A stretch of DNA of 64,000 bases from Cyclobacteriaceae bacterium (GTDB lineage: Bacteria > Bacteroidota > Bacteroidia > Cytophagales > Cyclobacteriaceae). The translations under genes and the position numbers were made by a program. Shown one piece after another: positions 8,345 to 62,979 of the stretch; the first letter of the stretch is position 1; each line of letters begins with the position of its first letter. The notes beneath the pieces were generated by a model. That model saw nothing but the letters and a program-made list of their open reading frames with translations. It did no database searches and was not told where the DNA came from. The stretch spans positions 2,495-66,494 of the forward strand of contig BQJT01000002.1 of assembly GCA_021604845.1 (NCBI GenBank). Direction: 5' to 3'.

Positions 8345-8450
8345 TAATTAAGATACAGCCAATTACCAACAAAAAAGCCCGACACATTGTGTCAGGCTTT
8401 TCTTCGTAGCGGGGGTAGGACTTGAACCTACGACCTTCGGGTTATGAGCC
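8345..8450. repeat. Direct repeat DR1 (att site): displaced 3' 44 nt of tRNA-Met (8407-8450, minus strand) plus 62 nt of downstream terminator region
   Basis: It aligns in register with 62845-62950 at an offset of exactly 54,500 nt. Mismatches are at 8352, 8353, 8362, 8381, 8387 and 8400 only; 8401-8450 is identical. Identity ends at 8450/8451. Confidence 0.85.
8371..8398 (-). terminator. Intrinsic terminator (the copy that follows the displaced tRNA 3' fragment)
   Basis: The minus strand reads AGCCTGACAC-AAT-GTGTCGGGCT followed by TTTTTTGTTGG, a 10-bp stem with one G-U pair. Confidence 0.6.
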
Positions 8451-8460
8451 TGTTCCATTT

Positions 8461-8490
8461 TGTATCCTATTGTATTCAATTGTATTCAAA
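8461..8490 (+). repeat. Three tandem 10-mers TGTATCCTAT / TGTATTCAAT / TGTATTCAAA; candidate arm-type recombinase binding sites
   Basis: Read directly from the sequence. They start 11 nt after the att identity boundary. 8451-8460 (TGTTCCATTT) may be a degenerate fourth unit. Confidence 0.55.
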
Positions 8491-8520
8491 TGGTCATTCT
8501 AATGCGTTTCAAGGTACATT

Positions 8521-8550
8521 TGAAACCAACTGAAACCAGGTAAAACCTCA
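8521..8550 (+). repeat. Three 10-nt-phased units TGAAACCAAC / TGAAACCAGG / TAAAACCTCA
   Basis: Read directly from the sequence. They keep the same 10-nt phasing as the first set. Confidence 0.45.
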
Positions 8551-8552
8551 AA

Positions 8553-8574
8553 ATGTTGTACATATGTTGTACAT
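8553..8574 (+). repeat. Perfect tandem 11-mer ATGTTGTACAT x2 (each contains the palindrome TGTACA), abutting the putative integrase promoter
   Basis: 8553-8563 and 8564-8574 are identical. Confidence 0.6.
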
Positions 8575-8575
8575 T

Positions 8576-8583
8576 TATATTTG
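8576..8583 (+). promoter_or_regulatory. Candidate Bacteroidetes -7 promoter box (TATATTTG, consensus TAnnTTTG) for the integrase
   Basis: It matches TAnnTTTG exactly and ends 36 nt before the ATG at 8619. No clean TTTG -33 box was seen. Confidence 0.3.
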
Positions 8584-8618
8584 AAGTATTCGTATATTGA
8601 GTCAGTTTTCTAAGATAC

Positions 8619-60038: not shown

Positions 60039-60063
60039 ACAAAGGGAGAACATCTCCCTTTGT
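60039..60063 (+). terminator. Stem-loop directly after the SusD-like gene
   Basis: ACAAAGGGAGA (60039-60049) pairs with TCTCCCTTTGT (60053-60063), an 11-bp perfect stem with a 3-nt loop. Confidence 0.5.
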
Positions 60064-60102
60064 ACCCATTGACAAATCAACTCACATTCAAATTAAATTA
60101 TT

Positions 60103-61197
60103 ATGTTGAAAATATTATCTCTTTCAATCCTAGTGATATTTGTTATAAATTATAAAGTTAATTCTTCTGAAATTATCAAACCGACTAAAACAGTCAAGAA
60201 TATTATCCTTCTAATTGGCGACGGGATGGGGGTTGCCCAATTATCCACTCTCTTTTATCTTAATCAGGACGAATCCAGCTTTCGTCAGTTTAAGCATATC
60301 GGATTTCATCAAAACCAATCCATAGATTCAAAAATAACCGATTCAGCTGCAGGTGCCACGGCATTTTCCATTGGGTTTAAAACTTACAATGGTGCTGTTG
60401 GTGTGGATGCGGATACCATTTCAAGACAAACAATTTTGGAAACGGCAGCCGAAATGGGAAAAAGTACCGGCATTATATCCACTTCATCAATAACTGACGC
60501 AACACCCGCCTCGTTTTATGCACATGTGAAAAGTCGACGAATGTCTGAGTCCATAGCCGTACAATTAGCAAAATCGCAATTAGATTTTTTTGCAGGTGGT
60601 GGCTACAAGGATTTTATTCATAGACTAGATGGCAAGAACTATTTAGAGATTATGAAATCAAATGGTGTCTACATAGACACTATTAGCTTGTCAAAAAAAT
60701 CATTGAAGCATGGTATCCGCTATGGATTCCTTTTAGCCAAAGAAGAAATGCCCAAGATGCAATCACAACGTGAGAACTTCCTACCTGAAGCTACTGAGTT
60801 AGCTATTAATCATTTATCCCAAAATGAAAAGGGATTTTTTCTCATGGTCGAAGGAGGGCAAATCGACAATGGTGGGCATGAAAATGATGCAGATTATGTT
60901 ATAGAAGAAATGAAGGATTTTGATATAGCGGTAGGTGTTGCTCTTGACTTTGCCAAACTAGAAAAGAACACGTTGGTAGTAGTTACAGCCGACCACGAAA
61001 CAGGTGGCCTTGCCCTTACAGCAGCTAAAGACCTAAATGATGAAAGCAATTTTAAAATTGACCCTACCTTTTCTACAAATGGACATACAGCATGTTTGAT
61101 ACCGGTTTTTTCTTATGGCCCCTCTGCGGAGGATTTTACTGGAATATATGAGAACAATGAAATTTATTATAGAATGATGCGGTGGTTTACTGAGTAG
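60103..61197 (+). CDS. PhoA-type alkaline phosphatase (secreted)
   Basis: 364 aa with a signal peptide. Motifs: LLIGDGMG, the nucleophile motif DSAAGATAFS, and VVTADHETGG. Confidence 0.88.
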   Translation: MLKILSLSILVIFVINYKVNSSEIIKPTKTVKNIILLIGDGMGVAQLSTLFYLNQDESSFRQFKHIGFHQNQSIDSKITDSAAGATAFSIGFKTYNGAVGVDADTISRQTILETAAEMGKSTGIISTSSITDATPASFYAHVKSRRMSESIAVQLAKSQLDFFAGGGYKDFIHRLDGKNYLEIMKSNGVYIDTISLSKKSLKHGIRYGFLLAKEEMPKMQSQRENFLPEATELAINHLSQNEKGFFLMVEGGQIDNGGHENDADYVIEEMKDFDIAVGVALDFAKLEKNTLVVVTADHETGGLALTAAKDLNDESNFKIDPTFSTNGHTACLIPVFSYGPSAEDFTGIYENNEIYYRMMRWFTE

Positions 61198-61488
61198 CTT
61201 ACTACAAAAGTACCTTACAAAAAGACCGTATCAATTACCGACGCCAAATTCAATAAACTAAGTTTAAGGACAATAAACAGCACTGACTCACTCACTACTA
61301 GCCGATTAGTTTCCCTAGATACTTACCGCGGACTGATTATATTCCTGCTGATAGCAGAATCAGCTTTTGTATACCATGCCCTTACCGGAATTTTCTCGGA
61401 AGGAACTTTTGGAGCAGCAGTAGTTCAGCAGTTTCACCATCATCCCTGGAATGGGCTGCGGTTCTGGGACCTTATTCAGCCTTTTTTC

Positions 61489-62382
61489 ATGTTTATTGTG
61501 GGAGTAGCCATGCCATTTTCGCTGCGCAGCCGTTTGGCAAAAGGGGCCAGTTGGAATGATGCGTTAAAACATATCTTAACCCGTTGCTTACTGCTATTTC
61601 TGTTCGGAACAGGTTTACACTGCGTCTATAGCGGGAAGCTGGTATGGGAATTGTGGAATGTACTTACCCAATTAAGCTTCACTATATTGGTTACATTCCT
61701 GCTTATACGAACACCAATCCGTACGCAACTAATTGCTTCTTTATTGTTGCTGCTGCTGATAGAGGTACTTTACAGAGCCTATGACCTGGGTGCACCGTTT
61801 GTAAAAGATCAGAATTTCGGTTCTTGGATGGATATGATCCTTATGGGCAAAATCAATCCAGGTGGTGGTTGGGTCACTATCAATTGTATTCCTACTGCGG
61901 CCCATACCATCTGGGGAGCCGTAAGTGGATCATTGCTTTTGGCCAGGAATGAAGAACCTAGATGTATAATAAAAACTTTCGTGATCTCTGGTATAATTGG
62001 TTTGGTAATAGGACATGGACTGGACCTAACCGGAATCACACCTATAGTAAAGCGGATTTCCACCACAGCTTTCGTTTTTGCTTCCGGTGGTTGGTGCCTG
62101 TTAAGCTTGGCATTCTTCTATTGGCTGGTAGATATTAAAGGATATCGCAAATGGGCACAGTTGTTCATTATAGTTGGTATGAATTCTATTTTTATCTACC
62201 TGTTTGCAAATGTATTAGCTTCCTGGTTGAGAGAATTTGTTCAAATATGGAATGATGGATTCCTTGTCAAGCTGGGGATTGGTGCAGAGGCGTTAGCAGT
62301 AACCAATTCCATTTTCACACTGACCTGTATGTGGTATCTATGTTATTTTCTGAATAAAAAAAGGATTTTCTTTAAGATCTAA
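61489..62382 (+). CDS. Multi-pass membrane acyltransferase of the DUF5009 / heparan-alpha-glucosaminide N-acetyltransferase-like family; conserved N-terminal region lies upstream of the first canonical start
   Basis: 297 aa from the ATG at 61489. The frame is open from 61198. Nt 61303-61488 encode RLVSLDTYRGLIIF...HHPWNGLRFWDLIQPFFMFIVG, the family's conserved N-terminus. Confidence 0.7.
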   Translation: MFIVGVAMPFSLRSRLAKGASWNDALKHILTRCLLLFLFGTGLHCVYSGKLVWELWNVLTQLSFTILVTFLLIRTPIRTQLIASLLLLLLIEVLYRAYDLGAPFVKDQNFGSWMDMILMGKINPGGGWVTINCIPTAAHTIWGAVSGSLLLARNEEPRCIIKTFVISGIIGLVIGHGLDLTGITPIVKRISTTAFVFASGGWCLLSLAFFYWLVDIKGYRKWAQLFIIVGMNSIFIYLFANVLASWLREFVQIWNDGFLVKLGIGAEALAVTNSIFTLTCMWYLCYFLNKKRIFFKI

Positions 62383-62505
62383 TCCCAAAATGTATATTGA
62401 TGCGAATGTAATACGGTGGAAATACTTTCCTTAATCACTTTTTCGACCGTAACAATGGGCAGAAATATTGGAAGATTATTATCTTCTCCGTTTTACTAAA
62501 TAACT

Positions 62506-62799
62506 TTATGCTTCTTGTTCTATTTCATCATAGGTTTTCATCCTACTTTTTGTGAGGTAAGCCTTTGAGCTCCATTGGCTATTCCGGATACTCTGGCACA
62601 CAGTTGATTCACTATTTCCTTCCTGATCTGATACCACAATGGTAATGTTATGTGTGCCGGGTACCACTGGAATATAGGTAAACTGGTTATCCTTTGAGTC
62701 GATACCCAGCGGGTTATTTTGGGGAATGCTGACTTTATTTTTATCCTGTAATCTGGCATCCGAACCGAAATTGCTAGTGTATTCCATGGTGAAATTCAA
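62506..62799 (-). CDS. Hypothetical ORF, probably the 3' fragment of a truncated gene at the island edge
   Basis: 97 aa with a TTG start. The frame stays open upstream only to 62847, about where DR3 begins, and has no ATG there. The sequence (THNITIVVSDQEGNS) looks like a piece of an Ig-like domain. Confidence 0.3.
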   Translation of the reverse strand: MNFTMEYTSNFGSDARLQDKNKVSIPQNNPLGIDSKDNQFTYIPVVPGTHNITIVVSDQEGNSESTVCQSIRNSQWSSKAYLTKSRMKTYDEIEQEA

Positions 62800-62844
62800 A
62801 GTCTCAAACAGCGCATGATCAGAGGTTACGTTAACCGATATTTC

Positions 62845-62950
62845 TAATTAATTTACAGCCACTTACCAACAAAAAAGCCCAACACAATGTGTCAGGCTTC
62901 TCTTCGTAGCGGGGGTAGGACTTGAACCTACGACCTTCGGGTTATGAGCC
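62845..62950. repeat. Direct repeat DR3 (att site), contiguous with the intact tRNA
   Basis: See DR1. It is 100/106 identical to 8345-8450 and continues at 62951 into the tRNA 5' half. Confidence 0.85.
62871..62898 (-). terminator. Intrinsic terminator of the tRNA-Met gene
   Basis: The minus strand reads AGCCTGACAC-ATT-GTGTTGGGCT followed by TTTTTTGTTGG. It begins 9 nt after the tRNA 3' end. Confidence 0.65.
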
Positions 62951-62979
62951 CGACGAGCTACCAACTGCTCCACCCCGCG
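62907..62979 (-). tRNA. tRNA-Met (anticodon CAT) with initiator (fMet) identity features; no encoded CCA
   Basis: The minus strand reads CGCGGGGTGGAGCAGTTGGTAGCTCGTCGGGCTCATAACCCGAAGGTCGTAGGTTCAAGTCCTACCCCCGCTA. It folds as a 73-nt cloverleaf (7/4/5/5-bp stems). It is near-identical to E. coli tRNA-fMet in the acceptor, D and anticodon arms. It has a C1-U72 mismatch, A11:U24 and three G:C pairs closing the anticodon stem. Confidence 0.92.

Follow-up and report, generated by a model that had tools for sequence, protein, structure and literature searches.

A probable composite genomic island at the initiator tRNA-Met gene of a Cyclobacteriaceae bacterium and its tRNA-Met-associated integrase family

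Here we describe a 64,000-nucleotide (nt) stretch of DNA (the window), taken from a metagenome-assembled genome (MAG) contig of Cyclobacteriaceae bacterium DHS20C17 (run DRR328265), in which positions 8451-62844 probably form a composite genomic island that was inserted site-specifically into the initiator tRNA-Met gene. Two parts are distinguished, part A (8451-52362) and part B (52437-62844), each with an integrase gene of its own (intA and the remnant intB'), and attachment (att) sites containing tRNA sequence lie at both ends and in between. The repeats, the gene content, the compositional break and the linkage of att site and integrase gene throughout the integrase family are direct observations; the site of strand exchange, two separate integration events and excision of the unit by intA are proposed. 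The cargo is metabolic, comprising a polysaccharide utilization locus (PUL) with an amino-sugar-type catabolic operon, a second SusC/SusD locus, phosphoesterases and TonB-dependent receptors, and its predicted effect is nutrient (glycan and organophosphate) acquisition. The features that define the island are the following.

8345..8450, minus strand: left att copy (attL-type); 8345-8405 are the tRNA terminator region and 8406-8450 the displaced 3' 45 nt of tRNA-fMet
8451..8618, plus strand: integrase-proximal arm, with tandem TGTATTCAA x2 (8471, 8481), AAACCA-type repeats and tandem ATGTTGTACAT x2 (8553, 8564)
8619..9836, plus strand: intA, full-length tyrosine integrase of 405 amino acids (aa), with the Pfam domains Arm-DNA-bind_5, Phage_int_SAM_5 and Phage_integrase
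52356..52436, minus strand: internal att relic that has lost the anticodon-loop core and retains the terminator with only ~10 nt from the tRNA 3' end
52444..52935, plus strand: intB', remnant of a sibling integrase gene in which just the last 150 codons survive; nt and aa identity to intA are each 89%
62845..62950, minus strand: right att copy (attR-type); the apparently element-borne terminator, plus the 45 nt that make up the 3' part of the present-day tRNA
62906..62979, minus strand: intact initiator tRNA-Met(CAU) gene, apparently regenerated; beyond it, the chromosomal right flank continues to era

The window holds a single tRNA gene, tRNA-Met(CAT), which ARAGORN and Rfam place at 62906/7-62979 on the minus strand; the Rfam scan of the 64-kb window returned nothing else. 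The tRNA is of the initiator type, with C1 unpaired with U72 and GGG/CCC (three G:C pairs) in the anticodon stem. Direct repeats of its 3' part are present at both ends of the island, with the intact gene at one of them. The two outer repeats (8345-8450 and 62845-62950) lie 54,500 nt apart and align in register without gaps, and 100 of their 106 positions are identical; the six mismatches (8352, 8353, 8362, 8381, 8387, and 8400) leave the last 50 nt (8401-8450) perfect. Beyond either repeat end, identity falls to the random level (17/61 matching in the 61 nt to the left). Within the repeat, the tRNA part (62906-62950) corresponds to tRNA positions 30-74—that is, 45 nt running from the 5' strand of the anticodon stem through the 3' end—and the other ~60 nt lie downstream of the tRNA and fold as its intrinsic terminator, a hairpin retained in all three att copies (z about -5 to -5.7). 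Chance can be excluded as the source of the repeats, because the att repeats and the integrase copies are the only two direct-repeat families of at least 30 nt in the 64 kb.

The internal third copy (52378-52436) matches 8356-8414 at 54 of 59 positions. The next ~930 bp of the left copy (8415-9344) are absent there, after which 52444-52934 matches 9345-9835 with 89% nt identity. The same ~930-bp deletion that cut the internal att copy also removed the first 255 codons of intB', and the remaining open reading frame (ORF; 52483-52935) is identical to residues 256-405 of intA at 134 of 150 positions (89%). A first-pass annotation made from the DNA alone had described the arrangement correctly in each of these respects: outer repeats in register at 54,500 nt with six mismatches, a tRNA part of the repeat that starts in the 5' strand of the anticodon stem and extends to the discriminator base, and a truncated third copy beside a second integrase remnant that is about 90% identical to the first.

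At the left end, the recombinase gene itself is complete. intA starts 168 nt from the left att copy, and its translation contains the catalytic motifs expected of a tyrosine recombinase, namely Arg (GIRITD), HxxR (HIARHS), and RH...Y (RHSDLKTTINY). The tandem ATGTTGTACAT sits 45-65 nt upstream of the start codon and, together with the other repeats of the proximal arm, supplies candidate arm-type binding sites, as expected for a protein with an Arm-DNA-binding domain. To judge from its full length, its catalytic motifs and the intact proximal arm repeats, intA looks functional. A phage origin of the integrase was considered and rejected, the best phage integrase match being 26% identical, and a search of the PDB returned just a distant integrase.

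The base composition of the window changes at the island boundaries. GC content is 44.7% in the left flank (1-8344) and 43.1% in the right flank (62951-64000), with a third-position GC content (GC3) of 0.47-0.54 in complete flank genes, whereas part A has 39.5% and part B 38.6%, with a GC3 of 0.29-0.42 in every cargo gene. Tetranucleotide correlations (r) are 0.89-0.97 among six full 9-kb island segments, compared with 0.81-0.88 between these segments and the flanks. A sliding composition and k-mer check had been proposed along with the first-pass annotation as a test for such a break, and the step proved to be sharp and to coincide with both outer repeats, the island differing from a flank baseline that is limited to ~13 kb.

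Comparison with relatives places a boundary at the same point on the left side. The left flank carries a GH95 fragment, a SusD/SusC pair, a TetR regulator, and a type I phosphodiesterase, and the nearest genome, another Cyclobacteriaceae MAG (L002; 72% in the empty-site comparison), is collinear with it at 74-77% nt identity up to position 8229, which is 4 nt past the stop codon of the last flank gene. The next 10 kb of that genome contain no island gene and no tRNA. In the search for an empty attB site, no tRNA-Met was found within 10 kb of the left-flank gene in 25 relatives (best 71% identical), nor any tRNA at a locus whose flank gene is 72% identical (L171). In a relative at 76% (L170; JGI 3300043300), this flank position is occupied by relics of the same element family: downstream of the phosphodiesterase orthologue, at 2100-2600, lie arm-type repeats (tandem TTGTTGTACC), a pair of terminators, and two tRNA 3' fragments, which suggests that the same chromosomal position has been used by the family in a relative and is a hotspot. 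Those fragments derive from a different tRNA(CAU), with a T stem of GGGGG/CCCCC, and no integrase ORF follows them; the clade may also use a second tRNA(CAU). On the right side, the tRNA-Met/era neighbourhood recurs in an unrelated metagenome locus (L131), which indicates that this side is conserved chromosomal context.

Further support for site-specific insertion comes from the integrase family as a whole. Homologues of intA number 3473 at E < 1e-20, many of them 405 aa long and 50-81% identical, and are found in Cyclobacteriaceae, Gracilimonas/Balneola, Aquimarina, Muricauda, Tenacibaculum, Ekhidna, and many marine metagenomes. For the family survey, 83 loci were fetched, and those with enough upstream sequence were considered testable. 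In 29 of the 34 testable loci whose integrase is at least 50% identical to intA, an antisense anticodon-loop core, GGTTATGAG, precedes the integrase start by 160-255 nt; this feature is shared by just 4 of 33 loci whose integrase is less than 50% identical. The spacing between core and gene is mostly 160-206 nt, and it is 170 nt in the window. Between the two, a conserved layout is observed: AAACCA-type repeats are followed by a tandem pair or triple of ATGTTGTACAT, ATGTTTTAGGT, or ATGTTTTACAT, placed 45-65 nt before the start codon; the same arm layout with tandem ATGTTGTAC, ATGTTTTAGG, or ATGTTTTACAT is found at L083-L087, L090, L091, L094, and L099. With its core spacing and its tandem arm repeats, the window locus falls within what we define here as a tRNA-Met(CAU)-specific integrase clade.

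Throughout these loci, the upstream tRNA pieces are fragments and not whole genes, and the cargo downstream of the integrase gene is unrelated from locus to locus. Examples include SLATT with peptidase M15 and an RHS-like protein, PSCyt with DUF1501, DUF488 with a methyltransferase, and HipA/HipB with RadC; one locus (L100) carries SusC/SusD. The inner edge of tRNA identity differs between elements; it falls at the end of the anticodon loop in some and as much as 7 nt farther on in others, which suggests that strand exchange takes place in or 3' of the anticodon loop. A complete 6.4-kb element (L094) displays the entire arrangement, with fragment, integrase gene, cargo, and intact tRNA-Met between 56-nt direct repeats. 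Tandem or relic arrays also occur: L106 has two fragments 6 kb apart, and in L084 an element that ends in RadC abuts a fragment. The proposal in the first-pass annotation that two sibling tyrosine-integrase elements are stacked at the initiator tRNA-Met is supported by the composition step, the fixed att-int spacing, the arm repeats, the tandem cases (L106, L084, and L170), and the end of synteny.

Several loci of the family show further features. In L084, three adjacent tyrosine recombinase genes (5072-8316; recombinase-trio type) are inserted just outside the tRNA-Met fragment, adjoining a RadC/DUF6876 block that resembles the tRNA-proximal end of L094. In L131 (6398-15241), a fragment, a broken integrase gene, and a leucine-rich repeat (LRR) protein are enclosed by two intact tRNA-Met genes separated by 8.8 kb; the repeats reach ~170 nt beyond the tRNA, and the integrase 3' end is present in a second partial copy at 13908-14065. 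The broken integrase gene of this locus is split into three ORFs, which suggests that decay is common in the family. In L083, from another Cyclobacteriaceae genus, the terminator and tRNA fragment beside the integrase gene (9709-9804) are 97% identical over 96 nt to window positions 62860-62955, compared with just ~74-77% for flank coding DNA of the two genomes; the terminator segment may be carried by the elements as a component of attP. Because the searchable literature yielded only a passing mention of a Psychroflexus torquis tRNA-Met "disrupted by an integrase" (PMC3914696), the integrase family seems not to have been described there as such.

Tests for other classes of mobile element gave negative results. 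Pfam, NCBIfam, and PHROG scans over the window ORFs revealed no relaxase, conjugation, phage-structural, primase, or excisionase-like gene, either among ORFs of at least 100 aa or among intergenic ORFs of 40-99 aa, and no small ORF of the excisionase or HTH_17 type was found. The island thus has no tra or type IV secretion genes, coupling protein, or relaxase, as would mark a CTnDOT-like integrative and conjugative element (ICE); no relaxase or Mob match, as would mark an NBU-like integrative and mobilizable element; and no capsid, terminase, portal, primase, repressor, or packaging gene of a prophage or phage satellite. PHROG matches in the window are confined to the integrases and one weak ParB-like hit, so the earlier statement that phage, conjugation, mobilization, and excisionase genes are missing is correct once a single ParB-N-like gene is added to it. 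By class, we assign the island to the tRNA-integrated tyrosine-integrase genomic islands, as a tandem (composite) form of the anticodon-loop type.

A mechanism that would account for this arrangement can be outlined. intA has a predicted IntN1/IntDOT-type architecture, with N-terminal arm-binding, SAM-like core-binding, and catalytic domains. An element-borne attP, with a tRNA copy that starts in the anticodon stem and reaches the 3' end, followed by the terminator, would have recombined with the tRNA gene, with strand exchange probably in or next to the anticodon loop. Such an insertion would regenerate an intact tRNA (62906-62979) and leave a dead 3' fragment (8406-8450) beside the integrase gene. 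Two separate integrations of sibling elements, A (~44 kb) and B (~10.4 kb), are proposed to have produced the tandem, each element supplying the 3' part of the tRNA and a terminator, so that the gene would be restored each time and a dead fragment left beside each integrase gene. Either order of the two integrations is conceivable, because a newcomer can use the intact gene as well as any fragment in which the core survives. The ~930-bp deletion, which removed the internal att core and the 255 N-terminal codons of intB, would then have occurred later and fused A and B into a 54.5-kb unit with one outer att pair and one intact integrase only. We infer that intA could excise the whole unit without an excisionase and that transfer from cell to cell would need a helper (a phage, an ICE, or transformation).

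Several observations weigh against a composite, site-specifically inserted island. The closest relative of the flank gene in a search of 5.8 billion proteins is 76% identical, with no same-species match. Part B shows decay in its truncated integrase gene, its start-less sigma gene, its truncated NagX-like gene, and a PKD-like remnant. The GC3 of intA (0.49) is like that of the flanks and unlike that of the cargo, and intB' has a GC3 of 0.41; the cargo may not share its history with the integrase module. The arm motif ATGTTGTACAT has no copy with two or fewer mismatches at either the right or the internal end. Only a weaker match, to TGTATTCMA, is found there, with TGTATTCCA at 62778 as a possible distal arm site; the distal arm may have decayed. 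TGTATTCMA has two copies in the proximal arm and one, on the same strand, 67 nt outside the right repeat, and the window contains five in all, compared with 2.1 expected by chance. Finally, in the Logan k=31 assembly of DRR328265, the flank contigs end at 8430 and ~62952, and the MAG contig is the sole source for the outer junctions. These endpoints are as expected, because k=31 is shorter than the 50-nt perfect repeat and because the tRNA is shared with other genomes. The same assembly contains a 43,032-bp contig that runs from inside intA (~9533) to inside intB' (~52565) and independently confirms part A and the internal junction. In exact-protein look-ups with the flank genes and intA, DRR328265 gave the only matches; intA was not recovered there as a whole gene, probably because its 3' part shares k-mers with intB'.

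The most serious alternative is that the island was made by an integrase but is now a fossil: fixed, immobile, domesticated, and vertically inherited. We regard this as quite possible, if somewhat short of probable. The decay of part B and the deletion of the internal att core point this way, as do the lack of the strongest arm motif in the distal arms and the integrase pseudogenes seen elsewhere in the family (e.g., L131), but intA itself is complete and has its catalytic motifs, the 50-nt core remains perfect in both outer att copies, and the integrase-proximal arm repeats are intact. Nor has the gap of 5 points in GC and ~0.15 in GC3 from the flanks been ameliorated. The failure to find an excisionase likewise fits a fossil, but it is not decisive, because in Riemerella an IntN1-like integrase together with attP sufficed, so that an integrase of related type needs no excisionase (PMC6764341).

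A second alternative retains a single integration event and attributes the internal att-int module to duplication within the island afterwards. Parts A and B are compositionally indistinguishable, and intA and intB' are mutually closest, at 89% compared with 88.7% between intB' and its next best match. Diverged siblings nevertheless give a better fit to the 11% nt divergence of the integrase genes and the mixed polymorphisms of the three att copies; the internal module also has the exact layout of a tandem junction (terminator, fragment, and integrase gene in the same orientation), and tandem arrays exist elsewhere in the family. We therefore consider internal duplication improbable.

It is very improbable that the contig is an assembly chimera in which island and flanks from different organisms were mis-joined at a shared tRNA-Met. 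In favour of a chimera, the source is a MAG, its composition changes exactly at the repeats where the Logan k=31 flank contigs end, and other Cyclobacteriaceae (L083) have a tRNA 3' half of 100% identity. Against it, the perfect repeat, at just 50 nt, is exceeded in length by a read and by the final k of usual assemblers, and the neat order of fragment, integrase gene, and tRNA would take two independent mis-joins. In addition, the copy-specific terminator polymorphisms are consistent along each junction, the same arrangement occurs in single-contig complete genomes of relatives (L083 and L084), and a composition step at att sites is the normal mark of a real island.

The cargo of part A consists of the following genes.

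10019..52066, mixed strands: part A cargo as a whole, annotated by Pfam, NCBIfam, and PHROG searches, with a GC3 of 0.29-0.40
10019-11362: metallophosphoesterase, adjoining intA
After the metallophosphoesterase, minus strand: SDR, deacetylase, and SSF symporter
15184-22322: locus of ECF sigma factor, FecR, SusC, and SusD
22452-25139: 895-aa protein, between SusD and GH109, inside the PUL
After the 895-aa protein: GH109, then GH123
29398-41529: 12-gene catabolic run ending in an MFS transporter
41640-42530: ParB-N-like gene, 296 aa, with the ParB-N/sulfiredoxin-type motif PLIVWENRGELILVDGHNRFE (LVDGHNRFE)
42708-43877, minus strand: purple-acid-phosphatase-like gene
After the purple-acid-phosphatase-like gene: ThuA-GSDH-PKD-cytochrome c fusion
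47497-52066: beta-propeller/phosphoesterase fusion (AcpA/PLC-type), then TonB-dependent receptor

With sigma factor, FecR, SusC, SusD, GH109, and GH123, the locus of part A is a PUL. The 895-aa protein that it includes has no Pfam, NCBIfam, or PHROG match and is a candidate new glycan-active or surface protein. The catabolic run encodes a creatininase-family protein, a 3-hydroxyacyl-CoA dehydrogenase, two enolase-superfamily proteins, a DHDPS-like protein, and two amidohydrolase_2 proteins, together with an AGE-type epimerase, a MurQ-like SIS protein, an NAD-epimerase, and the MFS transporter. The ParB-N-like gene stands at the break between this catabolic operon and the phosphatase genes; its PHROG matches are weak (phrog_21315, E 2e-6; ParB-like phrog_2159, E 9e-4), and it is the only island gene besides the integrases that resembles mobile-element or partition functions. 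The island was also sought elsewhere as a unit by means of the metallophosphoesterase adjacent to intA. This attempt was unsuccessful, as the homologues (60-76% identical) occur in other contexts with no integrase, which suggests that the cargo is a mosaic.

The cargo of part B is shorter.

53084..62799, mixed strands: part B cargo, with a GC3 of 0.29-0.42, in the order ECF sigma factor, FecR, SusC, SusD, PhoA-type alkaline phosphatase, NagX-like acetyltransferase, and PKD-like remnant
60103-61197: PhoA-type alkaline phosphatase, behind the part B SusC/SusD pair
62506-62799, minus strand: PKD/Ig-like ORF remnant, 97 aa, at the right end of part B

The locus of part B combines SusC/SusD with an alkaline phosphatase and has no carbohydrate-active enzyme, and it is PUL-like only. 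Region 2 homology of its ECF sigma factor begins at 53084, and the first start codon is the ATG at 53138; the 42 codons between the upstream stop and that ATG (window 53011-53140) contain no ATG, GTG, or TTG, and an ATT is present at ~53047. Either the sigma gene is N-terminally truncated or has lost its start, or an unusual non-canonical start is used. The right end of part B (61489-62799) looks decayed, with truncated genes, and the NagX-like transmembrane acetyltransferase lacks ~63 N-terminal residues.

A strong phosphate-scavenging theme is apparent in the metallophosphoesterase, the purple-acid-phosphatase-like protein, the beta-propeller/phosphoesterase fusion with its TonB-dependent receptor, and the PhoA-type phosphatase; the type I phosphodiesterase just outside the island (7263-8225) fits this theme as well. 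The first-pass annotation had described a nutrient-acquisition cargo with no transfer genes, and the gene content agrees. Its claim of two complete sigma/anti-sigma/SusC/SusD loci stands for the first locus, and the second may be incomplete in view of the sigma gene without a start codon. Its view that such a cargo is unusual for elements of this kind is not sustained, given that PULs are known on tRNA-integrating elements of Bacteroides and that L100 also carries SusC/SusD.

If the island is active, a 54.5-kb package for glycan and organophosphate uptake would be spreading among environmental Bacteroidota with an integrase as its only recognizable mobility gene, by a route different from the known transfer of PULs in gut Bacteroides, which uses conjugative elements. 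The pattern that defines the family, namely a tRNA-Met(CAU) target, a fixed att-int spacing, and conserved arm repeats, could act as a marker for delimiting flexible regions in Bacteroidota genomes and MAGs, and the intA-attP module could serve as an integration tool for Cytophagales. A broader and rather doubtful proposition, which we offer tentatively, is that the clade represents undescribed and very widespread integrase-only cargo shuttles specific for tRNA-Met(CAU), present in Cyclobacteriaceae, Balneolales, and Flavobacteriales of marine and soil habitats. Such shuttles would excise themselves without an excisionase, bring their own tRNA terminator, accrete in tandem with subsequent deletion of the att-int junction, and depend on a helper to move PUL and phosphate loci between genera.

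Among characterized systems, the 10K island of Riemerella anatipestifer is a close counterpart; there, an IntN1-like integrase and attP alone gave both integration and excision at tRNA-Arg (PMC6764341). Like the window island, it belongs to the Bacteroidota, carries an integrase gene adjoining one att site and no transfer genes, and has direct repeats that include tRNA-downstream sequence with a terminator-like hairpin. Unlike the window island, it occupies the 3' side of tRNA-Arg and not the anticodon loop of an initiator tRNA-Met. It is also a single element of 10 kb whose excision was shown by experiment, whereas the window island is a composite of 54.5 kb known from its sequence.

Resemblance to NBU1/NBU2 and the CTnDOT family of ICEs (IntN1, IntN2, and IntDOT) is one of architecture, through the shared Arm-DNA-bind_5, SAM_5, and catalytic domains. 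NBU elements integrate at tRNA genes. Unlike the NBU and CTnDOT elements, the window island has no relaxase or mob gene, tra genes, coupling protein, or excision operon. ICEs of the Bacteroidota, including those of gut Bacteroides, have been found to carry PULs and to integrate at tRNA-Lys or tRNA-Phe (10.1101/2020.06.09.142968). Integrase-only islands at the tmRNA gene of Pseudomonas are moved by jumbo-phage transduction (PMC12595487), and these islands and VPI-1 resemble the window island in combining a tyrosine integrase, flanking direct repeats, and variable cargo with no autonomous transfer genes (PMC12595487). They differ in phylum, in integrase family, in their tmRNA target, and in their defence-system cargo.

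An anticodon-loop class of tRNA integration sites was reportedly set out by Williams in 2002. The window island conforms to this class in that its identity block opens within the 5' strand of the anticodon stem and continues as far as the tRNA 3' end and in that the displaced fragment adjoins the integrase gene, and departs from it in that its repeat reaches 60 nt past the tRNA and includes the terminator (~170 nt in L131). Its PUL cargo is not exceptional. Taken as a single case, the window island is a well-formed island of an ordinary kind that adds no new principle to these known systems.

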